Source: a virus
Direction: 5' to 3' (one strand)
IMG/VR virus record: IMGVR_UViG_3300035034_002798
Location: 64,001-128,000 of that record
DNA: 64,000 nucleotides
The translations under genes were made by a program, and so were the position numbers. Of this stretch, positions 21,224 through 63,762 are shown piece after piece; positions within the stretch are counted from its first letter, which is position 1, and each line of letters begins with the position of its first letter. The notes under the pieces are model-generated. The model searched no databases. It saw nothing but the letters and a program-made list of their open reading frames with translations, and was not told where the DNA came from.

Positions 21224-21532
21224 ATGAAAGCATTAGTCTTGTCAGGCGGCGCCTTCAGAGGTGCTGTGCACATAGGTGCTATAAAGGCACTAGAGGAAGC
21301 AGGATACAAACCAGATATTATAGTAGGAACAAGCATGGGGTCCGTAGTTGGCGGGGCTTATGCTTACGGGTATTCACCAGAAGAGATACAAGATATATTA
21401 AACGAAATAAATTGGTTCAAGATGATAGATCCAGATATAAGAGGATTTTTATCAACAGTATTACCATTTTATGATCATAAAATGGTAATACTGTTGATAA
21501 AAATCCTCTTATATCTGGATCTATCATCTTGA
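21224..21532 (+). CDS. Patatin-like phospholipase, truncated at the fold-back point (21474)
   Basis: [10 protein letters not shown] oxyanion loop and GTSMG nucleophile; residues after ...PFYD derive from the mirror arm; catalytic DG motif missing. Confidence 0.85.
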
Positions 21533-21725
21533 ACCAATTTATTTCGTTTAATATATCTTGTATCTCTTCTGGTGAATACCCGTAAGCATAAGCCCCGCCA
21601 ACTACGGACCCCATGCTTGTTCCTACTATAATATCTGGTTTGTATCCTGCTTCCTCTAGTGCCTTTATAGCACCTATGTGCACAGCACCTCTGAAGGCGC
21701 CGCCTGACAAGACTAATGCTTTCAT
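21417..21725 (-). CDS. Patatin-like phospholipase, truncated (mirror copy)
   Basis: Identical to 21224-21532. Confidence 0.85.
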
Positions 21726-27730: not shown

Positions 27731-28807
27731 TTATACGTTTCTTACTAGCTGTGGCTCCTCGTAGGTCTCGTCAAGTGCGATATTCTTCGCTGACACAACG
27801 GCCTTTCCAGAGTCCAGTAATCCAATGCCATATCTTTCCTTAACTTTAATTGATTGGATATCTCTCCGAGGATTGTCAAAACGCTCTGTGGAGAGTGGAT
27901 CCTTGACCAGCATAATACCTACGTTATTACGGTCCAATACATACATATCAAACTTCTTGTTCTCTCTATCGATAGGCATAAATGGTGTTAAGTTAACATT
28001 TAAGTTCATTGGGATACGACCCTGTACCATAGATGGTGATAAAGTTACATCGTTTCCTTCTCCACCTAAAGCAGCTAAGTCTAACTTAGATAATGCATTA
28101 TTCTTAGCAAACATTGACCATGTTAAAGGGTGCATTAAAATATCAGTTGCTGCATACCCATTAGCCATTAATGCTAATACCATATCGATAAAGTCATTTA
28201 CTGACATAGTATCGTTTGGATTACCATCTTTTCCTAAGCCTGTAGTACCGGCTTCTGGCTGCTCACCCCTGATATCATTATCAAATAATGTGTGTCCGTG
28301 CTTTTTAAACTCATTGTAAATCTTTTCCTCTTTGAAACGAGCCATTGCCCGTCCAGCGTGGCGAATGTGAAGACCTATAGTATCCCACTGACTATCTTCG
28401 ATCATCTCATCGGTAATGCTGACCTGTAGACCAACTTTACCAACGCGAATTTCAGTACTTTTGTACTGATTAAAATCGAGATTTTCTTGAGGATATTCCT
28501 GACCTTCAGCTATATCATGCGCTCGAATCGCTGACACACTAGGAAATACCATGCTTCTACCTTCTGTTAATTGCACCTGATCAAAGAACTCGCTTGCAAT
28601 ATAATTAGGTTCTGCGGACTCTCTTAATTCACCCACAATCACTCTAGGAATAAGTACGGAAGCATCTGGTGTAGATAGAGCTTCATTTACGGAAATTCTC
28701 TCTTCCTTTAACTTGGAAGGTGAGTTATAGTCTGGGTTCATCATATCTTGGTAACGCTCAATTAAATTAAGCTTTTTTTGCTGTTCTTCGGTTAATTCTT
28801 TTGGCAC
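27731..28807 (-). CDS. Major capsid protein (mirror)
   Basis: Identical to 14142-15218. Confidence 0.88.
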   Translation of the reverse strand: MPKELTEEQQKKLNLIERYQDMMNPDYNSPSKLKEERISVNEALSTPDASVLIPRVIVGELRESAEPNYIASEFFDQVQLTEGRSMVFPSVSAIRAHDIAEGQEYPQENLDFNQYKSTEIRVGKVGLQVSITDEMIEDSQWDTIGLHIRHAGRAMARFKEEKIYNEFKKHGHTLFDNDIRGEQPEAGTTGLGKDGNPNDTMSVNDFIDMVLALMANGYAATDILMHPLTWSMFAKNNALSKLDLAALGGEGNDVTLSPSMVQGRIPMNLNVNLTPFMPIDRENKKFDMYVLDRNNVGIMLVKDPLSTERFDNPRRDIQSIKVKERYGIGLLDSGKAVVSAKNIALDETYEEPQLVRNV

Positions 28808-31298: not shown

Positions 31299-33386
31299 CT
31301 ATTTATCTTCTAAAGTGCAATGACAATTGGTGTGGAATGGCGGCACCCTTTCATATAAGTTGCTGCCTTCTAAGTTGATCTTTTTCTTTTCTCCACATAA
31401 TTCACAAGTGTCTTCACTAGAATTAACTATCAACTCTGTTTTGCCTAAATCCCTTGCGGATACAGCATATCCGTAGTTATAGGCATGCATCATTTCTGTA
31501 AATGCAATGAAATCTATTCTATGAGCATAAGCCTCATAAAGCCTGTTGACTCTATTTAGAGCTTTACTCTTATTGTTGTTTTTAAGTGCTGTTTCTATTT
31601 TGGCCGACATTTCATCTGCCAGCTTATTGAAGTATTTTTTATGAGATTCCTCTACCTGTTTGATTTCATAATCGTGAGTGGCTTTAGACACTTTTTCATC
31701 TGCTATATCTTTAAAAGCTGTGTCGTTGCCTGCTTGGAAAGAAGTACTGAAGGTGTCAGCACTCATTTTGAGAGTTAATCGTGCGAGTGATTTAAGTGAG
31801 GATGTTATGTCTTTCGTGGAATTGGGGTGTTTCTTTTTGTTATCTTCGAAGTACTTTTCCGTAAGCTCTAATACATCTTTTTTGGAGTTTGTGTATTGCT
31901 TTTTTAGTTTGGAAAGATGCTTTTCATAATTTAAGTTATCGACAAGTTCATTTGCCGTAAGGCTCTCTAAGTTTTCCTTAGTCTTAGGCCCTCCCCTTTT
32001 TCCGCTCTGGTTTTCTGGGTTATTTTTATTATCAGTATCTGAGCTGCTTCCTTCGGAGTCTTCTGCATCAGATGTAGCTCCAGTAACCAGATTGATATGC
32101 ATTTTAGCCCTATCAGTTATGGGGTCCATTCCAATTTCCTGTCTCATCTCATCTTCTGTAATTGCATTATGTTCATATTTATATACTGCATGATTTTCCT
32201 TTTTTATTTTAAGCTCAGTATCTATTTCTCTAAACTGGAACTTAACTTCGCTTTCTGGGTTTTCTAAAGGATCATACCCAGCTTCAAGTAATAGTTCCTG
32301 TATCATGAACTCATTTAAAAAGGTTGATAATACTTCTTGAAAAGCTTTTATCCTATCATGCATCTCTTTTGTCATATTATCGGCAGTTGATCTATTGGCC
32401 GTGTCGCCTCTACCCATTACAGTAGACGACACTCCTAAACCGGTGAAGACTCGTTTTTCAAAGTGCTCCAGGTAGTCCTTGGCATCTATCGCCTCACCAT
32501 CTGCGCCGATTACTTTTATTTCGTGCCTCTCTGGGGTTACTATGCCGCCATCTGAGGGCATGTTCTCTATCTGATTTCTTACATTATCTATTTCTTTTTC
32601 GTCTGCTTCAAAACCGGGTTCTGCAATACCTACTTTGTACTGATATAAGGGGAAAAGGTGTCTATATAAAAGCCTTAAAACGCTTTCTTCTGCCTCTCTT
32701 AAAGCCCTTATGTCGTCTAGGACGGGAAGTATAAAAGGCTGTCCAAATGCCTTACCTCTGTCCTTTTTATAGTAGATATGTATTATGTCGTTGGGGTCAA
32801 ATTCGACTGGATCTCCAACCCCTGGCACTTCCTGTTTGTACTTAGTTATAGTTCCGTGTTCGTCTCTTAAAATTTCAACAGTAGTAGGATTTAATATAAA
32901 ATACCCAGCTATTGGTTGATTACCAGTCACACCGGTAAGACTAACACCCTGCATCTGCAAAGCTTTAGAATTATTTTCTCTTGCTTTTACTACAAAAACA
33001 TTGGAGTATTTAACTAAGTCCTCAGCCATTTCATTAAAAAACTGTTGAACGGGCTTGCCAGTTGCCAGGGCCATAACCTTAAACCTCTGTCTGATGTATT
33101 TTATTGCGTCTGAATCTGGCCCTACAAAATCATATGATTCTTTAAAGAGCAGCTCTATATACTTATCTACAGCCTGTCTTGTGTAACTTGAAGTAGCGTA
33201 AGCATCTGTTATTTGTTGAAAGTCCCATTGCGGGGCTTCAAATGTTTCTCCTCCGCCACCTCCTGCTATATCAGCTGTACCCACTCTTCCGATTCTTACA
33301 TTTTTAGGGTCATAATCTTGAGGTGAAGCGTTTTTTAAAGAAATCATACGATTGAAGAAATTACCAATTTTCTGGAATATCTTCAT
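31299..33386 (-). CDS. Portal protein with gpF-like domain (mirror)
   Basis: Identical to 9563-11650. Confidence 0.82.
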   Translation of the reverse strand: MKIFQKIGNFFNRMISLKNASPQDYDPKNVRIGRVGTADIAGGGGGETFEAPQWDFQQITDAYATSSYTRQAVDKYIELLFKESYDFVGPDSDAIKYIRQRFKVMALATGKPVQQFFNEMAEDLVKYSNVFVVKARENNSKALQMQGVSLTGVTGNQPIAGYFILNPTTVEILRDEHGTITKYKQEVPGVGDPVEFDPNDIIHIYYKKDRGKAFGQPFILPVLDDIRALREAEESVLRLLYRHLFPLYQYKVGIAEPGFEADEKEIDNVRNQIENMPSDGGIVTPERHEIKVIGADGEAIDAKDYLEHFEKRVFTGLGVSSTVMGRGDTANRSTADNMTKEMHDRIKAFQEVLSTFLNEFMIQELLLEAGYDPLENPESEVKFQFREIDTELKIKKENHAVYKYEHNAITEDEMRQEIGMDPITDRAKMHINLVTGATSDAEDSEGSSSDTDNKNNPENQSGKRGGPKTKENLESLTANELVDNLNYEKHLSKLKKQYTNSKKDVLELTEKYFEDNKKKHPNSTKDITSSLKSLARLTLKMSADTFSTSFQAGNDTAFKDIADEKVSKATHDYEIKQVEESHKKYFNKLADEMSAKIETALKNNNKSKALNRVNRLYEAYAHRIDFIAFTEMMHAYNYGYAVSARDLGKTELIVNSSEDTCELCGEKKKINLEGSNLYERVPPFHTNCHCTLEDK

Positions 33387-36654: not shown

Positions 36655-38256
36655 CTAAAAACTGCTCCTTTTTGGAGGTCTTTTTAAAGTTCTGCTTCTA
36701 TTAAAGCTTGATCTTATGGCATTTGCTCCTTTTGACAGTCCTGGACCATCAAGGAAAGCAACACCTGTATTCTTAGATTTATTCTTGTCTTCTTCTCTTT
36801 TTTTCTTGTGTCGCGCGTAGTCGAGTCTGGGTGCTGTTGCTACATTACTTGCAAATTTTGACTTTGCTATATCTGTAAATTCTAACTGCATTGCGAGCAG
36901 ACTCAACATGAAAGCATCTAATGCATGTTCATTATCATCGTTGTATACCGGTCGGCCAGTTGGGGTTACTCTTTCTATATAATAATCAAGCATTTGCTCT
37001 TTTATCATCTGATCATTGCCTGGTAAGGCGATTCTCTCGTTTTCACATAATAAAACCGTTGTATTTACCATAAATGGTTTAATATGTTTTTTCCCGATTT
37101 CTTTGGTGTGAGGATCAGGAATATTAATTTTATCCGAGAAACTAATACCTTTAACCTTGTCTTCCAGTCCAGTACCAGGATGTGCTATTCCATATTTATG
37201 CAGGGCTTCTATTTGATACTCTCCGTGGCCCCTGTCAGCGTAAATGAAGTCTGGATCGAACTCTTCGTTTAACTCTACGATAGTGTCGATAGCATTTGAA
37301 TAAGTGAATTCTCCAGATGGTATCTCTGACCTGTTTATTGGATAGAATATATCCTCTTCAGGATCGTACTCTGATACTACAATCTGTGTTGCTGCACCAG
37401 CTTTATCCCAGTCGATACCTATCGTTCTAACAGCCTGGTAGTCGATCTCATCTACCAGCTCTATCCCTTTTTCTTTGCCTTTTTCTGCTGACTTCTCTAC
37501 AAACTTTCTCTGGAATACTCCTTCAGCCATATCTCCGAATTCTGCTAGTATCTCGTGTACATAACCGAGTTCAGTAAGGTTGTTGCGTGCATCTCTTTCT
37601 GCCGCATCTGACCAGTTAGGGTTAACATGAGATGTATAATGAAACTCTGTCCAGTCAAGTTCTTTTTTGGTACACCACTGCCAGAACCTGCCCCTGCGAC
37701 CAGTCGGCGTTGATGTTGCCCATATCTTTACGTTCTCAGCATCCTCATAGGCAACCGAGATAATTGTATCTATATCATCATCACTCAAATAATCTGCCTC
37801 ATCAAGATAAATGAGGTCCCCGCCCTGCCCACGAACGCTTGCTGCTCCGCCTCCGCCGGTGGTTCCTGCTGTAAATCCTACGATATAACTTCCGTTACCG
37901 AATTCTATTCTATTAGGTGATCTAATATCTCTGGTAACACTTTGCTGTATCATATCGCTTTTTTTAATTAGAGCTCTTAATCTCTGGAATATATGTTTAA
38001 TCTGTGACTCAAAAGGTGTAACAATCAATACCCTGTATCCTTCTATTGTGAATGCTGAGTGAAGCATTTTAATTACGGCCATATCGGTTTTACCAATACG
38101 ACGACCAGCTCTTACAACTACTCTATTCTCATCTGAGTTGAGCATGGTCTCCTGGTAAGATCTTGCTGTCCAGTCAAGTTCATATTCTGCAAACTTAACG
38201 GGATCTTCTAGTATTTCAAGAGTATTTAGTTCCTCATCTGTAAAATTTTCACTCAT
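36655..38256 (-). CDS. terL: Terminase large subunit (mirror)
   Basis: Identical to 4693-6294. Confidence 0.93.
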   Translation of the reverse strand: MSENFTDEELNTLEILEDPVKFAEYELDWTARSYQETMLNSDENRVVVRAGRRIGKTDMAVIKMLHSAFTIEGYRVLIVTPFESQIKHIFQRLRALIKKSDMIQQSVTRDIRSPNRIEFGNGSYIVGFTAGTTGGGGAASVRGQGGDLIYLDEADYLSDDDIDTIISVAYEDAENVKIWATSTPTGRRGRFWQWCTKKELDWTEFHYTSHVNPNWSDAAERDARNNLTELGYVHEILAEFGDMAEGVFQRKFVEKSAEKGKEKGIELVDEIDYQAVRTIGIDWDKAGAATQIVVSEYDPEEDIFYPINRSEIPSGEFTYSNAIDTIVELNEEFDPDFIYADRGHGEYQIEALHKYGIAHPGTGLEDKVKGISFSDKINIPDPHTKEIGKKHIKPFMVNTTVLLCENERIALPGNDQMIKEQMLDYYIERVTPTGRPVYNDDNEHALDAFMLSLLAMQLEFTDIAKSKFASNVATAPRLDYARHKKKREEDKNKSKNTGVAFLDGPGLSKGANAIRSSFNRSRTLKRPPKRSSF

Positions 38257-40472: not shown

Positions 40473-40547
40473 TGGCAGGAGAGACAGGTTTTGAACCCAT
40501 ACACATGGATTTGGAGTCCACTGCTCTACCAATTGAGCTACTCTCCT
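40473..40547 (-). tRNA. tRNA-Trp(CCA) (mirror)
   Basis: Reverse complement of 2402-2476. Confidence 0.92.
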
Positions 40548-40558
40548 AATATATAAAA

Positions 40559-40634
40559 TGGAGCTAATGACAGGAATTGAACCCGCGACCTGCTCGTTAC
40601 AAATGAGCTACTCTACCTACTGAGCTACATTAGC
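40559..40634 (-). tRNA. tRNA-Thr(TGT) (mirror)
   Basis: Reverse complement of 2315-2390. Confidence 0.92.
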
Positions 40635-40640
40635 TTAAAA

Positions 40641-40868
40641 TTAAATTATTACTGTAGTTACTATTTTCTTAAAACCATTCTCATTGCTAAATACTTGAAT
40701 TGATTTTCCTCTGGCCGGGCCATCTTCTTTATCTTCTTTATCTTCTGATTCTTCTATTTGGAAGTCATTTTCTACTATCTCAAGCCAGCCTTCATCAAAG
40801 CCATTTAAATGTTCTGGTTTTTCATTTGCAATTCTTTCTCTGATAATTCCTCTTACTGAATCTTTCAT
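40641..40868 (-). CDS. Hypothetical acidic protein (mirror)
   Basis: Identical to 2081-2308. Confidence 0.6.
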   Translation of the reverse strand: MKDSVRGIIRERIANEKPEHLNGFDEGWLEIVENDFQIEESEDKEDKEDGPARGKSIQVFSNENGFKKIVTTVII

Positions 40869-40871
40869 TTA

Positions 40872-41471
40872 TTATCCGCCCTTTTTTATATCAACATCCT
40901 GATAAAACCAGGGATTGTTGTATATTATTTCGTTAGTTAAACTTCCTATTACTTGACTCTCAAGAAAGTTGTAATAACTCTGTTTATAATAGTTATTTCT
41001 AAATTTAACTACTTCCTCGTGCATCTTGGTTGCATTCTTGATCGATTGGACACCATCAAGCTCAAAGTTTAATTTATCCAGGTCAACCTCAACAAGCCCC
41101 ACTTTAGGAGGCATATCATCACGAGTAAGCACATTTTTTGGAGCCATTATGTAATTATAGTCTCCTGCAAGTGTGTATCCTGCTTTGAAGTCTTCCTTTG
41201 ATACCTTAACTTCTATATTAAAAGCCGTCCTTCTTTTCTTGCGGCCTCTTACAGTCATTCCAATTACATCTGTTATTTGTTTTGTAGTTCTGTATTTTGA
41301 ATTTAAATAGGGATTTTTTTCGTCTCCTACGTAGACCTCTTTGGCAATAAACTTACAGTTCTTTTTATCTTTTAAGTACTTACTTGCCACGAGTTTGAGT
41401 AGGTAGTGTGTGGATGATTCATTAAGCGGTGGGTGTAAATCGGGGTTTGTTTTTAGTTCCATTATTATCAC
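40872..41471 (-). CDS. PD-(D/E)XK nuclease-like protein (mirror)
   Basis: Identical to 1478-2077. Confidence 0.6.
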   Translation of the reverse strand: MIIMELKTNPDLHPPLNESSTHYLLKLVASKYLKDKKNCKFIAKEVYVGDEKNPYLNSKYRTTKQITDVIGMTVRGRKKRRTAFNIEVKVSKEDFKAGYTLAGDYNYIMAPKNVLTRDDMPPKVGLVEVDLDKLNFELDGVQSIKNATKMHEEVVKFRNNYYKQSYYNFLESQVIGSLTNEIIYNNPWFYQDVDIKKGG

Positions 41472-41905
41472 TCTCTATTGTGTATTTATTATTTTATTGG
41501 AGATTATAAAAAGTTTATAAGACATTTCTCTGAGTATTTTTACATTCAAGTGCCGCCTTTTCTTTATTTGATTGCTGATGATTCGGTTAATAATAATAAA
41601 CTCTTTCATAAGTTTATCAATATCGTCTATTCTATTTACATACTCAGTGAACTTTTTGTACATAGGCTGACACCTACTTTTTTATTTTTTGAATTCGAAG
41701 TTCTTACCGAAAAATTCGTAAACTTCATAAACTCCAGATAGCGAACCGTGTCTAATGATCGTTTCGCCTTTATATATCCCAAATACTTTCATAAATAATT
41801 TGAACATTTAAACTACCCCTTTTCATCTTTCTGCGTTTTTATTCAAAGGACAATAGAGGAATCGAACCTCTCGAAAATGTACCGCCTGGTTTCTTGTCCA
41901 TATTA

Positions 41906-41981
41906 TGGTGGACCCAGCAAGAATCGAACTTGCAACAAGCCGGTTATGAGCCGGCGACTCTGCCGGTTGAGCTATGGGTCC
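41906..41981 (-). tRNA. tRNA-Ile2(CAT) (mirror)
   Basis: Reverse complement of 968-1043. Confidence 0.85.
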
Positions 41982-41985
41982 ATAG

Positions 41986-42070
41986 TATAAGGAGGAGGAT
42001 TTTAACCTCCGCTGTTTCTTCGTGTACGAGATTTACAATCTCGCGCCTTCAACCACTCGGCCATCCTTAC
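41986..42070 (-). tRNA. tRNA-Tyr(GTA) (mirror)
   Basis: Reverse complement of 879-963. Confidence 0.82.
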
Positions 42071-42295
42071 ATTTACTTACGAATGAGTAATATTCTCTAT
42101 CAATCTCCGTTACTCCCGGGGATAAAACTTTTTGCTATAAGGGCTGGATTCGAACCTGCGAATTAATTAGCACTTATTCTAGAATTATGTAACTAATCTT
42201 TAAACTCTCATTCTGTACTTTAAGAAATGATCACATCCCACTAATACAAAACTTCAGTTATTATTCCTTCCTTTATTCCTTATAACAAGTAAATA

Positions 42296-42371
42296 TGGCA
42301 GTAGAATCAGGATTCGAACCTGAGATCTTCTCATTAACAGTGAGCTGCTCTACCAACTGAGCTATTCTACT
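42296..42371 (-). tRNA. tRNA-Asn(GTT) (mirror)
   Basis: Reverse complement of 578-653. Confidence 0.92.
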
Positions 42372-42462
42372 TTACTGAGGGGCGCTCATGGCCTCTCTTA
42401 TTTGTCATTTCTATTACTTATCTATTACTTATCCACTCAACGGAGCGGATTTATTTATAAAT

Positions 42463-42535
42463 TGGGAGCAGGGGCGTGAATCGAACACGCGAAAGCGAGA
42501 TTATGAACCTCGACTGGACACCAATCCTCCCTGCA
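42463..42535 (-). tRNA. tRNA-Met(CAT) (mirror)
   Basis: Reverse complement of 414-486. Confidence 0.75.
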
Positions 42536-42538
42536 AAA

Positions 42539-42615
42539 TGGTATGACTGGTAGGATTTGAACCTACGACTCCTTCGTCCCAAACGAAGTTCCCTACCAAA
42601 CTAGGCTACAGTCAG
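42539..42615 (-). tRNA. tRNA-Pro(TGG) (mirror)
   Basis: Reverse complement of 334-410. Confidence 0.9.
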
Positions 42616-42898: not shown

Positions 42899-43057
42899 TT
42901 ATTGTGAAGGGTTATTTTTTTGTAATCTATTTAAGGCTAGATTTTTGGTCCTTTGATTTATCTCCTCCTGAGTGTTCTTTCTGGAGATAATGATCTCATC
43001 CAGTCTATTGTGAACATATACATCTACTAATCTGTTTTCGTCTAATTGTCTTTTCAT
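42899..43057 (-). CDS. Small hypothetical protein, 52 aa
   Basis: AGGAGG SD; MKRQLDENRLVDVYVHNRL...; reads through 42948, so the left arm is simply cut at the window start. Confidence 0.55.
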   Translation of the reverse strand: MKRQLDENRLVDVYVHNRLDEIIISRKNTQEEINQRTKNLALNRLQKNNPSQ

Positions 43058-43195
43058 TGGAAAGCCTCCTTGAATGGATGTGTTATAGGAGTACCACTCA
43101 TGAGGGCACTCCTATTGGAGGGAGTATTTGTTGCGAGGGATTTAATTTGGTTTGTATCAATCTATAAAAATTTATTGAAAAGACTAGGGAATGAT

Positions 43196-43873
43196 TTATT
43201 CTTCTTCAGCTTCCGACTCTGCCTCTATCTCAACAGTCTTTTCCTTTTCTGATTCCTGCTTCTTTTTCAGAAGCTTGGCAGCATAAGTACTTGGATCCTG
43301 AGATATCTCGAGTTTATCAGCTGATTGGTCTTTTGGTGTTGCATTCAGGTAACTTAATATCTTATGTCTTCTATCTAATAGCTTATCTTTTAACTCAGCT
43401 ACTTTATTGATCTCTGGCTTTCTGATTACCTTACCAGAATCACTAACAGCTACCGGCACATCATTAATTAAATCTGGATCAGCCGCCTGTTTCCTGTCAG
43501 CCCTGTCTATTTTTATGTCAAGGTCTATTACCTCTTTAAGCAGTGATAATTCAACCATGTCTTTACTTTCTAAACCCATTTGTTTACTGTATTTCTCATA
43601 AAGGTCTAATACTTTTGCGATCTCTTTTGGACAACGCTCTCCTTCTGGGGCATTATCGTTTTTGTAATAGCCACACGTCTCCTTGTAAGGACATTTATCA
43701 TCAAGACATATCATAGGTATGCCGGCATAAAGACCGTGCTTAACCTGTTGCTCTGTCTTTGCGTGGGCTATATTTCTCTTCCCCTCTTCTGAGAGATTCC
43801 ATTCACTGGGATAGTTGTCTTCTGCTTCTTGTTCTATAACTTCTTGAGAATCGCTCATAACTTCAACCTCCAT
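43196..43873 (-). CDS. Probable terminase small subunit-like protein with Cys cluster
   Basis: KHGLY motif typical of many TerS; C-x4-C-x5-C...C; helical C-terminus; upstream of and co-oriented with the packaging operon. Confidence 0.5.
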   Translation of the reverse strand: MEVEVMSDSQEVIEQEAEDNYPSEWNLSEEGKRNIAHAKTEQQVKHGLYAGIPMICLDDKCPYKETCGYYKNDNAPEGERCPKEIAKVLDLYEKYSKQMGLESKDMVELSLLKEVIDLDIKIDRADRKQAADPDLINDVPVAVSDSGKVIRKPEINKVAELKDKLLDRRHKILSYLNATPKDQSADKLEISQDPSTYAAKLLKKKQESEKEKTVEIEAESEAEEE

Positions 43874-43910
43874 AATCTATATATGAAGGATAGCCGAGCT
43901 CCAGGCTGGT

Positions 43911-44069
43911 TTATGAGTTTTCCCTGCTCTGACTATCCTTATCATCGTCATTTTCTAACTTAACCCAGAAATTGCCGCAGTTACTACAGTAATATGCATA
44001 CATGCTGGGCTTTTTCCTATTGTCTAGTAATATTTTCTGAACATTGCTGTGGCATTTGTTGCATTTCAT
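43911..44069 (-). CDS. Small zinc-ribbon protein, 52 aa
   Basis: AGGAG SD; MKCNKCHS...YYCSNCGNFW; first gene after the conserved promoter element. Confidence 0.65.
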   Translation of the reverse strand: MKCNKCHSNVQKILLDNRKKPSMYAYYCSNCGNFWVKLENDDDKDSQSRENS

Positions 44070-44110
44070 CCGTTGTCACTCCTGTAAGCACGCCTTTATT
44101 TAAATGTGCT

Positions 44111-44195
44111 TCTATATATATAATACCCGTTTTAGGGGGTGTTTTGCCAAGTCGAAAAAGATTTTCCTAACCATTTCCAGTTTTTCTTGTTAAAA
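44111..44195 (-). promoter_or_regulatory. Conserved leftward promoter element, copy A
   Basis: TTTTAAC...TGGTTAG...ACTTGGCA-N19-TATTATATA; near-identical to copy B. Confidence 0.65.
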
Positions 44196-44204
44196 GAAAA
44201 TAAT

Positions 44205-44522
44205 CTACCATAAATCTGGAGAATCGCTGTGACTATTGTCGTGGGGAGCATCTGTATGCTGATTGTAGGTTCCGTCTGTGTGGTTATCGTGACTACCATT
44301 GTCATTATGATCATCATAGCCGTAATTTGAATGCGTATCATGACCATAGTTGCTGTGCGTATCGTGATCGCTGTGAGTATCATGACTTGACTCGCTATAA
44401 CCACCATCATCACTATAACCACTACCAGAGTCGTCCGAATGACCGTCCCCGTATGATCCAGCATCATAAGATCCTGTTTTATCATATTTAGCGTAATCAT
44501 CTACATATAAATCATATCCCAA
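44205..44522 (-). CDS. His/Tyr-x-Asp/Asn repeat protein B (putative radical SAM substrate)
   Basis: GAGGTG SD, TTG start; about 20 H/Y-x-x triplets (HSD, HDT, HSN, YSD, HTD); in an operon with the rSAM gene. Confidence 0.75.
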   Translation of the reverse strand: MGYDLYVDDYAKYDKTGSYDAGSYGDGHSDDSGSGYSDDGGYSESSHDTHSDHDTHSNYGHDTHSNYGYDDHNDNGSHDNHTDGTYNQHTDAPHDNSHSDSPDLW

Positions 44523-44553
44523 ATTAAATCACCTCTATCTTCTTTTGATATTA

Positions 44554-44883
44554 CTAACCTCTGTCAGTATGTGTATCATGCCCAGAATTTGTGTGATCGT
44601 CGTGGCCACTATTTGTGTGGTCATCATGACCGGTATTTGTATAAACATCATAACCATAATCCCGATGAGTGTCTGTGTAATCACTGTGGTCGAAATGTGT
44701 CCACCTTGCCTTGTCGTCATTTTCTGGAATATGGTTGCTTTGCTTTGCGTCGTTATCTACCACATTCCCTCTGAACTTACTATCATTATTTTTGATATCC
44801 CTGGCGTCTTTTACGTTTTCTCCTTTTAGTCTATCAGAATCTACCCCCCAATTATCATGGGGGTAGTCTGTATGTCCTCCCAT
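44554..44883 (-). CDS. His/Tyr-x-Asp/Asn repeat protein A (putative radical SAM substrate)
   Basis: AAGGTG SD; charged N-terminal leader-like half, C-terminal GHDDHTNS-type repeats; starts 17 nt after the rSAM stop. Confidence 0.78.
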   Translation of the reverse strand: MGGHTDYPHDNWGVDSDRLKGENVKDARDIKNNDSKFRGNVVDNDAKQSNHIPENDDKARWTHFDHSDYTDTHRDYGYDVYTNTGHDDHTNSGHDDHTNSGHDTHTDRG

Positions 44884-44900
44884 CCTAGCACCTTCTTTCT

Positions 44901-46115
44901 CTATCTATTTAATTTACTGCTGTCAAATAAAGATCTTTGAGCATGCATTCTCTTGAATGGATTGTGCTTACTGTTTCTGCCGGATCTATTTCTGTAATCT
45001 TTATGTTCATCTTCTATTCTTATCGGTTCATCTACTACTAGGTCTATATGTGGAAACATGGACTGCATTCTCTCTGTGATGTAAGCATAAGTTTTAAAAG
45101 TTGCTTTACAATAATGATCTTTTCTCATATAATCATCGTCTCTTGCTCTTCCTGGACAACCACCGTAACACACCTTGAAGAAACGGCATCCTTGGCAGTC
45201 TTTCTGTAATAATAACTCATGTCTACCAGTAAAACTATTATCATCAAAAGGAATTGGATTACCGCCTTCATCTACCTGTTTTACACACGTAGAAAGGTCT
45301 CCGTCTGGTAATACAACCCTGCCTGCTGGTGTTTTGAAAGGTTCGCACTTTGTTTGAGTGCAGCAGCCTAATCCGTATCCCATTAAGTTGTCAGCAAATT
45401 CCCTAAAAGGATTATATCTTCTACGAGGCGAACTCAGGACGTATTCAGCTAGTCTTTCATAAACTATTGCAGCTCTCTCTCTACTTAGTTCTATTTCTGG
45501 AGTATCTCCATCTATGAATGCAAGGTTTAACCTACCACCTGTAATATCAAATTCTTCTTCTAATCTTCTTAAAAAGTTTAAAAACTTGTCTAATTTTTCA
45601 TCAGTGCCAACATTACCTTGGTGCAATACGGAAATAAAACCTGGGCGTACACCAGCATCTACCAGTTTTTTAAGAGTATCTTCAAGTCTGTTAGTGTATT
45701 CTTTTGTTCTTTCAACATCTGGATAACCTCTTAGATCATTCAAGTCACCGAATCCATCAAAAGAAATTCCAACACCAACATCATGTTTTTTAAATAATTC
45801 TACATGCTCATCGGTGATAAGATTTCCATTTGTTTGGATTCCTACTTTTTTTCCTAGATCGTTTTTATCCAGAATCTCGTTTGAAAATCTAATCAATTCT
45901 TCTAACTCGTCTATCGGAAGCAGTAGCGGCTCACCACCGTGGATTGTGATCCCATCTCTATTGCCAAATCTTTCATGATGTTTTTCTATCGACTCTTTCA
46001 TTAGTTCTATATCAGTTTCTACATTGGACTTATCTGATTCTAAAAGTCCTTCCTGGTGTTCGTAACAATAATCGCAGTTTAAATCGCATTTTAGTACTGG
46101 TTTAACTAATAACAT
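44901..46115 (-). CDS. Radical SAM/SPASM-domain peptide maturase (anSME/triceptide-synthase-like)
   Basis: Start MLLVKPVLK after AGGGGGAG SD; CDLNCDYC, HGGEPLL, QTNG, GISFDG; SPASM cysteines CC-x4-C...C...CQGC-x5-C-x3-C...C. Confidence 0.9.
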   Translation of the reverse strand: MLLVKPVLKCDLNCDYCYEHQEGLLESDKSNVETDIELMKESIEKHHERFGNRDGITIHGGEPLLLPIDELEELIRFSNEILDKNDLGKKVGIQTNGNLITDEHVELFKKHDVGVGISFDGFGDLNDLRGYPDVERTKEYTNRLEDTLKKLVDAGVRPGFISVLHQGNVGTDEKLDKFLNFLRRLEEEFDITGGRLNLAFIDGDTPEIELSRERAAIVYERLAEYVLSSPRRRYNPFREFADNLMGYGLGCCTQTKCEPFKTPAGRVVLPDGDLSTCVKQVDEGGNPIPFDDNSFTGRHELLLQKDCQGCRFFKVCYGGCPGRARDDDYMRKDHYCKATFKTYAYITERMQSMFPHIDLVVDEPIRIEDEHKDYRNRSGRNSKHNPFKRMHAQRSLFDSSKLNR

Positions 46116-46146
46116 ACTTCTCCCCCTTGTTAAAATTAAATTATCT

Positions 46147-46233
46147 TCTATTATATATAATACGCATTTTAGAGGGTGTTTTGCCAAGTAGAGACTGGGA
46201 TTCCTAACCAAATCCCGTTTTTTACGTTAAAAA
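46147..46233 (-). promoter_or_regulatory. Conserved leftward promoter element, copy B (rSAM operon)
   Basis: TTTTAACG...GATTTGGTTAGGAA...ACTTGGCAAAACACCC..GTATTATATATA. Confidence 0.65.
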
Positions 46234-46402
46234 AACAGATGTTTGTGCATTTATCCTTTTAATATGAAAAAACTTGTGATAATATATAACCTGTTATCAC
46301 GGTATACGAGCATTATTTGTCTTAATTTGTCGAATAAAAAAAGTTCTTTTAAAGACTAAGTTATCATGATAACATAGATTATGTTGATAATTTTTTGATT
46401 AT

Positions 46403-46555
46403 AAGAACAGGAGAAGATCAATAATATATCAAACGATTAAGGAGTTGAATTTAAAGAACAGGAGAAGATCAATAATATATCAAACGATTAAGGAGTTGAA
46501 TTTAAAGAACAGGAGAAGATCAATAATATATCAAACGATTAAGGAGTTGAATTTA
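46403..46555 (+). repeat. Three perfect tandem copies of a 51-bp unit containing the ribosome-binding site
   Basis: AAGAACAGGAGAAGATCAATAATATATCAAACGATTAAGGAGTTGAATTTA at 46403, 46454 and 46505. Confidence 0.95.
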
Positions 46556-46558
46556 AAG

Positions 46559-46960
46559 ATGGGATTTAAGGCGGTTATGTTGGACAACACTGTAGAGCTT
46601 CAAGGGGAAACAGGTAGTAGATGTATAAACATAACAGGTGACCTATCGCTTAAAGTATTAAGAAGAGAATGTGGTAGTACTCTTATGTGTGTGAGCTGCA
46701 ATGAGGAATTTAGCAGTGAGGCCATTGGTAATACCCTAGAGATACCAGACACCATAATTGAATTGTTCGAACTAAGTAATGGTCAAAATTATAGCACCTT
46801 TGTTAATGATGACGGTTCGGTTTCAATAGAGTTTGAAAAAGATGAATGTGTTGTCTGTGAAAAGGATAGGACTGGTAGTTATGATTTAATACCAGCAAAA
46901 GAAAAATATGTCTGCGAAGAATGTTTTCAGAACATGAGAAAGCATAGACTACTAAGATAA
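46559..46960 (+). CDS. AbrB-like regulator with C-terminal zinc finger
   Basis: LEIPDTIIELFELSNGQ..TFVNDDGSVSI followed by CVVC...VCEEC, matching the clostridial AbrB layout; ATG 46559, with upstream in-frame TTG starts from the repeat. Confidence 0.6.
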   Translation: MGFKAVMLDNTVELQGETGSRCINITGDLSLKVLRRECGSTLMCVSCNEEFSSEAIGNTLEIPDTIIELFELSNGQNYSTFVNDDGSVSIEFEKDECVVCEKDRTGSYDLIPAKEKYVCEECFQNMRKHRLLR

Positions 46961-46977
46961 ATAGACTTAACATAAAA

Positions 46978-47007
46978 AAGACTGGCCCATTTATTTAGGC
47001 CAGTCTT
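46978..47007. terminator. Intrinsic terminator (possibly bidirectional)
   Basis: AAGACTGGCC/GGCCAGTCTT stem with an upstream A run, between convergent genes. Confidence 0.65.
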
Positions 47008-47258: not shown

Positions 47259-47672
47259 TTAGTCTCTTACTTCAACATGTTCGTAGAAATAGTCGATAGA
47301 TGTTCTGATGATATCTGACATATCTCTGCCTGAACGCTCAGATAACTCTCTTACTTTCCTCAATTGAGTTGGATAGAAGTAATAAGTCTTTTTTGTCTTC
47401 TGCTCCTTAATTCCCTTAGATTTAAGTATAAAAGAATCATCCCTTTCACTTTCAGAATCACTTTTAACATCACTTGCACTTGCAGAAGTGCCATCACTTT
47501 CACTTGCACCATCACTTTCACCATCAACATCTTCCGATTTGGCTTTATCCTTCTTACCTTTAACCTTATCTTTAAGCTTTTCATTAGCTTCCTGTTTTTC
47601 TTCGTCCTCTTTTTTAGTCTTCTCTTTCAAACCATTAAAGAACTCTTCATTTTGATCATCTTTTTTAGACAA
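47259..47672 (-). CDS. Ribbon-helix-helix centromere-binding protein (ParG-like, type Ib)
   Basis: Overlaps the parA stop; disordered N-terminus; C-terminal KKTYYF.PTQLRKVRELSERSGRDMSDIIRTSIDYF. Confidence 0.72.
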   Translation of the reverse strand: MSKKDDQNEEFFNGLKEKTKKEDEEKQEANEKLKDKVKGKKDKAKSEDVDGESDGASESDGTSASASDVKSDSESERDDSFILKSKGIKEQKTKKTYYFYPTQLRKVRELSERSGRDMSDIIRTSIDYFYEHVEVRD

Positions 47673-48429
47673 TTCTCTCCACCACCTTTTCTAGCACGGT
47701 AAAGTACTGCTTTGCCGCTTCCTCGTCGTATTCAAATACAGTCTTACCTAAAGAAGTTGATTCGGCTATTTTTGTCCTTCTGTGAACTGGCTCAGTTAAG
47801 AGCTCCTGTTCGTCCTCGAATATCTCTTTTAATAGTTTATATTTATCTTTGGCTTCATTAGTTCTAATATCAAACATAGTTGGTATTACTACCTGGATCA
47901 TATCGCTGCTTAATCTTAGATCATTTAGGTAGTCGTACATATTACCAACCGACTCTACTGAAGCTCCTTCAGTCTGGACCGGCATTATGATTGCGCTTAC
48001 ATATAATAATACAGCATCATTTACCATCGATCTTTTTGGTCCGCAGTCGAATATTACAAAATCATAACCTCTCTCCTCTAAATCTCCTAAGATTTCATCT
48101 AAAGCTATGTCCAATCTTCTGTGATTATTAAAATAGGATTCAATATATTTCATTTTAGAGTTAGGAAGTAAGTCTAAGTTTTCTCTTGCACTGACCACCA
48201 CTTCCTCGAACTTAGCAGGTATTTGATTGTCTTCCCGCTTTATCATGTCATAGATAGTCTTATCATAATCATCCTCATCAAAGCCTAGAAAAGAACTGCC
48301 ATTGTTTTGGTCATCCATATCTACTATTAGCACCTTATAGTCTAATTTAGTTAGACCATGGGCACAGTTTACTGCTGTGGTAGATTTTCCGACCCCTCCC
48401 TTGTTATTCATAACCGCAATTTTCTTCAA
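47665..48429 (-). CDS. parA: ParA/Soj Walker-type partition ATPase (no N-terminal HTH)
   Basis: KGGVGKST, VDMDDQ.N, YDFVIFDCGP, TMFD.RT; AAGGAG SD with TTG start. Confidence 0.92.
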   Translation of the reverse strand: MKKIAVMNNKGGVGKSTTAVNCAHGLTKLDYKVLIVDMDDQNNGSSFLGFDEDDYDKTIYDMIKREDNQIPAKFEEVVVSARENLDLLPNSKMKYIESYFNNHRRLDIALDEILGDLEERGYDFVIFDCGPKRSMVNDAVLLYVSAIIMPVQTEGASVESVGNMYDYLNDLRLSSDMIQVVIPTMFDIRTNEAKDKYKLLKEIFEDEQELLTEPVHRRTKIAESTSLGKTVFEYDEEAAKQYFTVLEKVVERIV

Positions 48430-57062: not shown

Positions 57063-57090
57063 ATCTAGTTCTACCCTTCGACTTCGCGGC

Positions 57091-57117
57091 GCCTGTCAAG
57101 AAGATCATTTGACAGGC
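57091..57117 (+). ncRNA. Conserved intergenic hairpin, copy 2
   Basis: GCCTGTCAA-GAAGATCAT-TTGACAGGC; outer stem CTTCGCG/CGCGAGG. Confidence 0.65.
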
Positions 57118-57170
57118 TTGCTCGCGAGGGTTTGTTAAAGTTAGATTAATTTAACTATCTTATAAAGGAG

Positions 57171-59076: not shown

Positions 59077-59097
59077 TCTACCTGTTTAGAGCTGTGC

Positions 59098-59120
59098 TCG
59101 TCAAGAAGACCGTTTGACGA
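59098..59120 (+). ncRNA. Conserved intergenic hairpin, copy 3
   Basis: TCGTCAA-GAAGACCGT-TTGACGA; outer stems GAGC/GCTC and TACCTGT/ACAGGTA. Confidence 0.65.
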
Positions 59121-59339
59121 ACTTGCTCACACAGGTATGTGATAGTTGAATTAAATAAAATTATTAGGAGATGATGTTAATGATAACCTTCAGTAGTTTT
59201 TTATCTGGTTTTGATATGTTTATACCCACCTATCAGAAAAAAACCTGATTCAGAAAAAAGAATAAAAATATATAAAGAAAGAATAAATCAAATAATAAAA
59301 AATGTTAGTTCTTCTAAACAATGCAAAGGGTGATTATAA

Positions 59340-61935: not shown

Positions 61936-61958
61936 AGACCTACCTACAACGGCCGGCT

Positions 61959-61983
61959 ACTGTCAAGAAAACCATTTGACAGT
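61959..61983 (+). ncRNA. Conserved intergenic hairpin, copy 4
   Basis: ACTGTCAA-GAAAACCAT-TTGACAGT; outer stem AACGGCCGG/TTGGTCGTT with G-U pairs. Confidence 0.65.
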
Positions 61984-62034
61984 CTTGGTCGTTTTCGGTT
62001 TATTTAGGGTAGATTAATAAAATATTTTAAGGAG

Positions 62035-63537: not shown

Positions 63538-63653
63538 AGAAAAAGATGATAAAAAACATAAATTACTGACTAAGCTAAATAAGTTTAAATCGCTTTTTAG
63601 TATTTTCACTGACTTTCTCCAATAAGTTCAAAAGAATGCTTCCATAACCGGCA

Positions 63654-63678
63654 ACTGTCAAGAAAACCATTTGACAGT
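63654..63678 (+). ncRNA. Conserved intergenic hairpin, copy 5
   Basis: ACTGTCAA-GAAAACCAT-TTGACAGT; outer stem ATAACCGG/TTGGTTAT. Confidence 0.65.
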
Positions 63679-63762
63679 CTTGGTTATTCCAGCTCGTTTA
63701 AATTAGATTAAATAAACATTTTTCTTTTTTACAATTAATTTACTCTAAAGGAGGTGAATTAG

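Follow-up and report, generated by a model that had tools for sequence, protein, structure and literature searches.

Why would a phage encode, in one tight operon, a radical S-adenosylmethionine (rSAM) enzyme of the protein-maturing kind and, directly after it, two small proteins made up of His/Tyr-x-Asp/Asn triplets? The question is raised by a three-gene operon on the minus strand (44205-46235) of the window, by which we mean the whole 64,000-nucleotide stretch analyzed here, positions 64,001 to 128,000 of the IMG/VR virus record IMGVR_UViG_3300035034_002798. Its genes encode the enzyme P0001 and the repeat proteins P0002 and P0003. Comparison of these proteins with their relatives suggests that P0002 and P0003 are, in all likelihood, substrates of P0001; the fuller reading, in which P0001 would modify them by forming three-residue rings at aromatic-x-Asp/Asn triplets, is one to which we give slightly better than an even chance. 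The operon itself is a real feature, neither a chance arrangement nor an antibiotic cluster.

The cluster motif of P0001, C10-x3-C14-x2-C17, consists of three cysteines that are invariant in an alignment of 31 homologues, as are the residues of its SPASM region (C252, C257, G272-x4-C277, C307-x2-C310-x5-C316-x3-C320, and C336), which follow the classical pattern for two auxiliary clusters (C-x9-15-G-x4-C, C-x2-C-x5-C-x3-C, C); the enzyme also carries an HGGEPLL motif and a nearly invariant arginine, R195, which might pair with the Asp at position 3 of a triplet. Pfam recognizes the Radical_SAM domain (PF04055, 1.3e-19, above cut-off), the Pfam SPASM model PF13186 does not fire, and the same search gave no match to PqqD or a RiPP recognition element (RRE); there is no N-terminal extension, the cluster motif starting at residue 10. 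In NCBIfam, the best match is DynA (2.2e-33 over the full length, 116 bits for a cut-off of 450), followed in order by the anaerobic sulfatase-maturating enzymes (anSME), YhhB, AmcB, FxsB, GrrM, and XyeB, all far under their cut-offs: 93 bits for the anSME equivalog TIGR03942 (cut-off 349) and 57 to 91 bits for XyeB, GrrM/OscB, FxsB, YhhB, and AmcB (cut-offs 310 to 450). Among the Hxs models (TIGR03976-03979), HxsB reaches 40 bits of the 370 required, through its N-terminal core only, and HxsC is not among the best 25 of 75 NCBIfam matches. Furthermore, P0001 aligns end to end with PHROG 1802, a group of phage rSAM proteins (1.7e-32), and PADLOC detected a weak and generic similarity to the viperin core only. 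The AlphaFold2 (AF2) model of P0001 has a predicted local distance difference test (pLDDT) value of 89, and the structures that match it best are anSME (4K37) and the triceptide synthase ChlB (9GM3, with leader), both over the full length, with template modeling (TM) scores of 0.65 to 0.72. Based on these results, we place P0001 in the RRE-less anSME/cyclophane-synthase branch of SPASM enzymes, outside all named families. A preliminary description of the locus, made from the sequence alone, was thus right in seeing an rSAM/SPASM enzyme without RRE, with a CxxxCxxC motif and a SPASM cysteine set, and the best-matching families are indeed peptide or protein maturases; membership in the XyeB, GrrM, FxsB, or Hxs families, which it had considered, is contradicted by scores far below every NCBIfam cut-off.

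P0002 and P0003 contain no cysteine and are acidic, with pI values of 5.2 and 4.3. All the triplets listed in the preliminary description are present, 12 in P0002 and 14 in P0003, and the open reading frames (ORFs) and translations confirm its account of a leftward three-gene operon with a 404-aa rSAM enzyme and two Cys-free proteins of about 105 aa (109 and 105 aa). Shuffled sequences of the same composition place Asp or Asn two residues after His or Tyr 5.1 times on average for P0002 and 7.1 times for P0003, compared with the observed 12 (P=0.00015) and 14 (P=0.0007). A scan of all ORFs in the 85,474 bp of unique genome sequence returned P0002 and P0003 as the only H-x-D/N-rich ones. In P0002, a conserved N-terminal part of about 60 aa precedes an 8-residue repeat, GHDxHT[ND]S, and P0003 ends in H-S-D-S-P-D-L-W, which resembles the H-x-D-x-P-hydrophobic end of the repeat proteins of the wider family; the first 60 residues of P0002 and this end of P0003 are candidate recognition elements. 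Both N-termini are polar and lack a hydrophobic stretch. Neither protein matched a Pfam or NCBIfam family, and P0002 gave nothing past threshold in Pfam, NCBIfam, PHROG, or PADLOC, its sole Pfam row being a chance match to Haspin_kinase (E 0.082, 12.4 bits for a cut-off of 25). The ESM Atlas model of P0002 has a pLDDT of 0.38, consistent with disorder, and ESM Atlas features gave no match for either protein.

Orthologues of P0002 with 59 to 82% identity follow the orthologous rSAM gene in the related loci L003, L004, L129-L131, and L132, and orthologues of P0003 are found in L129-L132 and L004. The triplets are kept at 42 of 46 orthologous positions in P0002, where position 1 is invariant in 11 of the 12, and at 39 of 47 in P0003, where His and Tyr swap at position 1. 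Across the orthologues of both proteins, His exchanges with Tyr at position 1 and Asp with Asn at position 3, and position 2 is free. This pattern of substitution shows, at the sequence level, purifying selection on the triplets.

The wider family and its motif

At least 339 viral contigs encode relatives of P0001, and 931 family representatives were found at E<=1e-30 in 1.8 billion clusters. An alignment-based scan was needed to detect the viral relatives, a first scan with the single P0001 protein having given no match. The family is mostly viral, with prophage-like loci in Halomonas, haloarchaea, Bacteroidota, Bacillota, and others, and three cultured Thermus phages carry members of it; P0001 is 28 to 38% identical to family members (E 1e-37 to 1e-66). 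Close relatives with 60 to 76% identity come from independent assemblies (L003, L004, and L129-L132) and have the genes in the same order, the rSAM gene first and then the homologues of P0002 and P0003, within the same region from ParA to the terminase. The recurrence of the same order in independent assemblies indicates that the operon is real and under selection. In L003, a second, unrelated rSAM gene (L003:4917-5927, 336 aa, with a PapB/MoaA-like core) lies between the maturase and the P0002 homologue.

The neighborhood survey that the preliminary description had suggested, for rSAM genes next to repeat ORFs, was strongly positive. The 92 loci surveyed form 64 clusters at 90% identity, and 57 of these have in the fetched flank an ORF with at least 6 H-x-[DN] triplets per 60 aa, nearly always on the same strand; it is usually upstream, its end only a few bases away from the start of the rSAM gene. 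A DUF483-like gene lies just downstream of the rSAM gene in 62 of the 64 clusters, in some cases with a methyltransferase domain. For the genome studied here, a tblastn search with five such partners against the 85-kb unique sequence found nothing below E 0.16; in this clade, the chemistry or the dependence on a helper may have shifted. Motif and enzyme also meet within single proteins, since at least three H-x-D/N triplets occur in the enzyme's own C-terminal tail in 48 of 83 homologues; the tail of P0001 holds an HKD and a YRN triplet.

The repeat proteins of the family range from 186 to 1476 aa; many open with a conserved domain of beta-hairpin repeats, and some have collagen-like Gly-x-y runs, a Laminin_G_3 lectin domain, or a Gly_rich_2 domain. 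They sit after a GpJ-like tail-tip protein or, as in Thermus phage Cumys, after baseplate and tail-collar-fiber genes. Given these domains and this location in tail and baseplate modules, the general partner of the family looks like a tail-fiber component. The proposal that the products are virion or late proteins, made in the preliminary description, therefore fits the wider family; it fits the window less well, where the two proteins have no fiber domain and are encoded beside partition genes.

Several features of these loci merit mention in their own right. Mid-size H-x-D proteins (L016:4084-4983 and about 40 similar ORFs) combine an N-terminal domain of three beta-hairpin repeats, with the consensus PGSIWVEG..hHYID..G.E, with a shared C-terminal end, H-x-D-Q-P-V-x-V-G-P. 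In the AF2 model, pLDDT values exceed 90 over residues 1-100 and fall to about 40-50 within the repeats, and Foldseek found no match to the beta-hairpin domain in the PDB at E<=0.001. Neither this domain nor this end occurs in the genome of the window, where a hidden Markov model (HMM) of the PGSIWVEG-type N-terminal domain, used to search for a fiber-type substrate, found nothing at E below 1.6. In L067, L056, L057, and L070, four or five tandem repeat-protein paralogues precede one rSAM gene, some with collagen-like Gly-x-y runs or Cys-rich C-termini. Natural fusions (P0133, P0131, and P0139) join the rSAM enzyme to a DUF483-like domain, to a methyltransferase, and in one case to an HExxH-motif domain and a kinase-like tail, and tie the parts of the cassette together functionally. 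Inteins, some with a homing-endonuclease-like middle, are inserted directly after CxxxCxxC in P0214, P0218, P0240, P0248, and P0156.

A FastTree phylogeny was computed for 93 members of the family, with distant SPASM proteins as the root. In it, the window groups with L004 and L003 in a clade on a long branch (support 100), which falls inside the family next to L005-type loci (support 93). Within this tree, it is the only clade with downstream putative substrates and the only one without a DUF483-like gene. Because the clade is nested, has small putative substrates encoded downstream, and lacks both the DUF483-like gene and a fiber-type repeat protein, we regard it as a derived, minimal version. 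The system of the window thus appears to be a reduced offshoot of a widespread phage cassette composed of an H-x-D/N repeat protein (often tail-fiber-like), an rSAM enzyme, and a DUF483-like protein.

The motif itself can be defined more broadly than the His/Tyr-x-Asp/Asn form first noticed. In 95 unique repeat proteins, picked by His alone, Asp or Asn stands at +2 from 97% of His residues, 52% of Phe, 37% of Tyr, and 35% of Trp, for a background of 20%, and every non-aromatic residue stays at or below 14%. One clade has F-S-N in alternation, and in the same register, with H-T-D and H-S-N. The motif therefore behaves as aromatic-x-D/N, and corresponds to the aromatic-x-x motif by which triceptides are defined. 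An aromatic requirement at position 1 fits ring chemistry rather than metal ligation.

Proposed ring formation and its alternatives

Under the reading that we favor, the operon would be a self-contained protein-maturation system in which P0001 would bind P0002 and P0003, the small, acidic, and disordered products of the two genes that follow its own, and would modify them at many aromatic-x-Asp/Asn triplets. The 5'-deoxyadenosyl radical would take a C-beta hydrogen from the Asp or Asn at position 3, and the resulting radical would attack the ring of the residue at position 1, an imidazole or a phenol. The expected product is a three-residue ring, with a change of -2 Da per triplet; comparable structures are the Trp-x-Asn ring of xenorceptides and, in triceptides that contain His, rings closed from His C2 to C-beta. 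With as many as 12 rings in P0002 and 14 in P0003, two flexible chains would become stiff rods that resist proteases and are rich in His and carboxylate. As precedents, rings that join His C2 to a C-beta are made on HAA by HaaB, on HNR by YhhB, and on HTK by HtkB; the last of these enzymes, whose rings link His C2 with Lys C-beta, also processes motifs that begin with Phe or Trp (PMC11499958). For XyeB and the xenorceptides, a Trp-Val-Asn (WVN) ring is known.

Several observations weigh against this reading. P0001 falls under every curated family cut-off, and the nearest solved protein by sequence is an anSME (2.6e-31, full length). Seven of the 64 clusters have no repeat ORF in the fetched flank, the clusters without a DUF483-like gene are the window's own relatives only, and the 60% identical relative L003 has a second rSAM gene inserted. 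To these must be added the mass change found on HxsA, the DNA modification proposed for Thermus phage homologues, and the metal-binding capacity of His arrays, each of which belongs to one of the alternatives.

The most serious alternative, possible although we doubt it, retains the substrates and changes the chemistry: carbon insertion as in the HXS system (+8 Da), C-alpha/C-beta oxidation of the anSME type, epimerization, or a dynobactin-type His N to C-beta link. P0001 is as near to anSME as to ChlB, and its best HMM is DynA, an enzyme whose products include a bond between His N and C-beta. The majority of the family depends on a DUF483-like partner and often on a methyltransferase as well, which suggests multistep chemistry. 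Moreover, HxsA, the sole experimentally studied rSAM-matured His-x-Ser repeat protein, gains 8 Da on an SHRSS motif instead of losing 2 (PMC13128918). However, a position 1 restricted to aromatic residues and a strict +2 spacing are predicted by triceptide rings, and oxidation or epimerization needs neither; as for the HXS route, the HxsB score of P0001 is 40 bits for a cut-off of 370, with no HxsC among the best 25 of 75 NCBIfam matches and no HxsD-like gene in the operon.

It is much less probable that P0002 and P0003 are not substrates at all, being metal-binding or structural arrays that travel with the rSAM gene for another reason, with the enzyme acting on DNA, a nucleotide, or a cofactor. 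His-rich arrays do bind metal in known phage fibers (HxH arrays, T4-type fibers), and the His/Asp arrays could simply do the same; the weak, generic similarity to viperin-type rSAM cores also points this way. A preprint on Thermus phages notices the three-gene module and its spread, places the rSAM/DUF483 homologues near cyanobacterial deazapurine DNA-modification genes, and proposes DNA modification, the repeats going unmentioned in the passages found (bioRxiv 10.1101/2024.08.14.607894). Beside the window operon, however, there are no deazapurine or other DNA-modification genes, and SPASM enzymes with the architecture of P0001 act on peptides or proteins. The repeat-ORF linkage in 57 of 64 clusters extends across very different phages, and the motif recurs in the enzymes' own tails. 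A metal-binding array is also the poorer fit because Phe is accepted in the motif; indeed, Phe, Tyr, and Trp all replace His, which a metal site would not tolerate.

The last alternative, that P0001 is an anSME installing formylglycine on a host or phage sulfatase, can practically be dismissed: the nearest solved sequence, a top fold match, and the annotation of one Thermus phage homologue as "arylsulfatase regulator" speak for it, but the TIGR03942 score is far too low, the neighbors P0002 and P0003 have neither Cys nor a C/S-x-P-x-R motif, the family-wide partner is a repeat protein rather than a sulfatase, and no sulfatase was found in the record by a search that finds sulfatases in 10 of 14 control genomes. 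Clustering with sulfatase maturases, which the preliminary description had named as grounds for abandoning its proposal, is accordingly half borne out, P0001 being as near to anSME as to a triceptide synthase in sequence, and runs contrary to the genomic context.

Ring formation would also allow a bolder interpretation, which we consider unlikely though worth stating, for the clade of the window. A fiber-maturation cassette may have been turned into a helper-independent factory for free, ring-locked, acidic, His-rich mini-proteins, with a new type of bond (His/Tyr ring to Asp/Asn C-beta) made 12 to 14 times per 105-aa chain and with products that act alone, for example as stiff polyanions that mimic DNA and counter host defense or as metal-loaded components of the virion or of the injected material. 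If so, these would be the first phage-encoded RiPP-like proteins with a function outside the fiber.

In the literature searched, the clade of the window is undescribed, and searches for the module, for DUF483 with rSAM enzymes, or for phage triceptides found nothing besides the Thermus preprint; the clade is a variant of the phage H-x-D repeat/rSAM/DUF483 cassette. Were ring formation to be confirmed, rSAM cross-linking, until now a chemistry of small peptide natural products from bacteria, would extend to viruses, which would direct it at their own proteins and at dozens of sites per chain, and the triceptide motif rule would be widened to acidic and amide residues at position 3. It would furthermore give a function to three genes that occur together in hundreds of phages, in several bacterial phyla, and in haloarchaea, and, with tail-fiber substrates, a new way of hardening receptor-binding parts. 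With one enzyme, no helper, and two soluble candidate substrates of about 105 aa, the window offers the simplest and most convenient entry point, and the cultured Thermus phages are a test bed for the fiber-linked form.

The operon and the phage genome

Coordinates are collected in Table 1. The intergenic gaps of the operon measure 17 nt (rSAM/P0002) and 31 nt (P0002/P0003). The ATG of the rSAM gene has AAGGGGGAGAAGT just before it, a 436-aa frame with a TTG start being merely the longest open frame, and the TTG start of P0003 has GAGGTGAT just before it.

Table 1. Positions in the window of the operon, its flanking elements, and other features discussed in the text
Feature	Position	Strand	Remarks
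Promoter-like 84-nt element, upstream of the rSAM gene	46152..46235	-	Direct repeat family D3
rSAM/SPASM enzyme P0001, 404 aa, ATG start	44901..46115	-	Pfam, NCBIfam, and PHROG matches
Candidate substrate 1, P0002, 109 aa	44554..44883	-	12 [H/Y]-x-[D/N] triplets
Candidate substrate 2, P0003, 105 aa, TTG start	44205..44522	-	14 [H/Y]-x-[D/N] triplets
Second copy of the promoter-like 84-nt element	44115..44198	-	Directly past the P0003 stop
52-aa zinc-ribbon ORF	43911-44069		Behind the second 84-nt copy
225-aa ORF without family	43196-43873		Behind the second 84-nt copy
Large terminase	36655-38256
Portal	31299-33386
Major head protein	27731-28807
Seven-tRNA cluster	40473-42615
ParA-type partition ATPase	47665-48429
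Patatin-like ORF (GTSMGS motif)	21417-21725		Contains the palindrome center, 21474/21475
Three tandem 51-bp repeats	46398-46559		97-100% identical
69-nt element, four copies	57086-57154, 59091-59159, 61953-62021, 63648-63716		Each before a plus-strand gene

The two copies of the 84-nt element are 80% identical, and a 24-nt core occurs exactly twice in the window, with zero occurrences expected. Lying before the rSAM gene and after P0003, they bracket the operon; at the second copy, the operon ends and the unit of the 52-aa and 225-aa ORFs begins. The upstream copy contains TTGGCA, a 19-nt spacer, and TATTAT, with a small dyad upstream, and a sigma-70 scan with spacers of 16-18 nt did not call it; the element may act as a promoter. 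The preliminary description had held that the operon shares a promoter element with the small terminase (TerS) and packaging genes. The duplicated element stands, whereas the label TerS finds no support: the 52-aa and 225-aa ORFs have no TerS signature, and the assignment of the 225-aa ORF as TerS was dropped, having no support among the family searches of the neighbors.

Apart from these two ORFs, the neighbors are a 171-aa ORF and ParB-like and ParA genes. No protease or exporter adjoins the operon, as had been stated at the outset, and a secreted antibiotic is for this reason unlikely, again in agreement with the preliminary description. The 51-bp repeats lie between the promoter-like element of the rSAM gene and the 5' end of a plus-strand ORF (46445-46960), adjoin the ParB-like and ParA genes, and may be the partition site or iterons of a phage-plasmid. 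The region 47259-48429, where the ParA-type ATPase and a gene for a small acidic and basic partner lie inside a tailed-phage genome, suggests a plasmid-like prophage life style. Elsewhere, the four 69-nt elements each have a TGTCAAGAA...TTTGACA dyad followed by an AT-rich box, and resemble an operator and promoter common to a further set of genes.

That the window is phage DNA is shown by its large terminase, portal, and major head protein genes. The public record from which it derives, 170,948 bp, is a perfect palindrome, equal to its own reverse complement, with its center inside the patatin-like ORF; positions 1-21474 of the window mirror 21475-42948, and the tRNA cluster is hence present twice. 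The operon lies outside the mirrored part. A hairpin telomere was considered and ruled out, no protelomerase having been found and the center cutting the patatin-like ORF. The record, a perfect palindrome centered within an ORF and without protelomerase, is therefore a fold-back assembly artifact. The 170-kb size and the "inverted terminal repeats" are not real, and the label of a large phage given in the preliminary description overstates the size; the unique sequence amounts to 85,474 bp and is incomplete at the palindrome-center end. The stretch is present in contigs of three lake-water metagenome runs, and no RNA run was listed among the sequencing runs containing it. Short contigs from two lake-water runs also cross the palindrome center; one of them is 228 nt long, matches the stretch over 114 nt counted from its first base, and may therefore be a palindrome of 2 x 114. 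A blastn search of window positions 43000-47000 against deposited phages gave no match.

Comparison with known systems

The solved anSME structures (PDB 4K36-4K39) represent the closest sequence and an equal-best fold, and these enzymes resemble P0001 in having three [4Fe-4S] sites, no RRE, and full-length protein substrates; the window differs in that its neighborhood and record hold no sulfatase or C/S-x-P-x-R motif and in the bit score (93 for a cut-off of 349). The "rSAM module" of Thermus phages Cumys and phiMa (bioRxiv 10.1101/2024.08.14.607894) belongs to the same enzyme family, with 32% identity, but has a DUF483 gene and an upstream repeat protein in the fiber module, neither of which the window has. 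In our reading of the Cumys record, the gene before the rSAM gene encodes a 343-aa H-x-D repeat protein and stands at the end of the baseplate and tail-collar-fiber genes.

The HXS anti-phage system (Li et al. 2026, PMC13128918) shares the setting of phage-bacterium conflict and the principle that an rSAM enzyme matures a protein for which an array of His-x-small-polar triplets is required. It employs HxsB/HxsC and HxsD, whereas the window operon has no second rSAM gene and no HxsD. HxsA is basic, exported, and anchored to peptidoglycan, with five repeats and one +8 Da site, in contrast to the phage-encoded proteins of the window, which are acidic (pI 4.3-5.2), have no signal peptide, and hold 12-14 triplets that end in D/N rather than S.

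The system of the window would work most like the triceptide synthases (HaaB on HAA, YhhB on HNR, HtkB on HTK, ChlB on YDR, and XyeB on WVN), yet it remains under their family cut-offs. The two share an RRE-less rSAM/SPASM enzyme, the fold match to ChlB (9GM3), HMM similarity to YhhB, XyeB, GrrM, FxsB, and AmcB, an actual or putative substrate gene that adjoins the enzyme gene, and repeated aromatic-x-x motifs with all four aromatics at position 1. HExxH fusions also occur in the phage family, and HExxH domains are known partners of triceptide synthases. On the other hand, the phage-encoded systems have a nearly universal DUF483-like partner, absent in the window, and would act on whole-protein substrates of 105-1476 aa, often tail-fiber-like, without Gly-Gly leader, protease, or exporter. 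Position 3 is basic or small in triceptides and Asp/Asn in the phage family, and the 1-5 motifs per substrate of the triceptides compare with 12-130 in the phage family.

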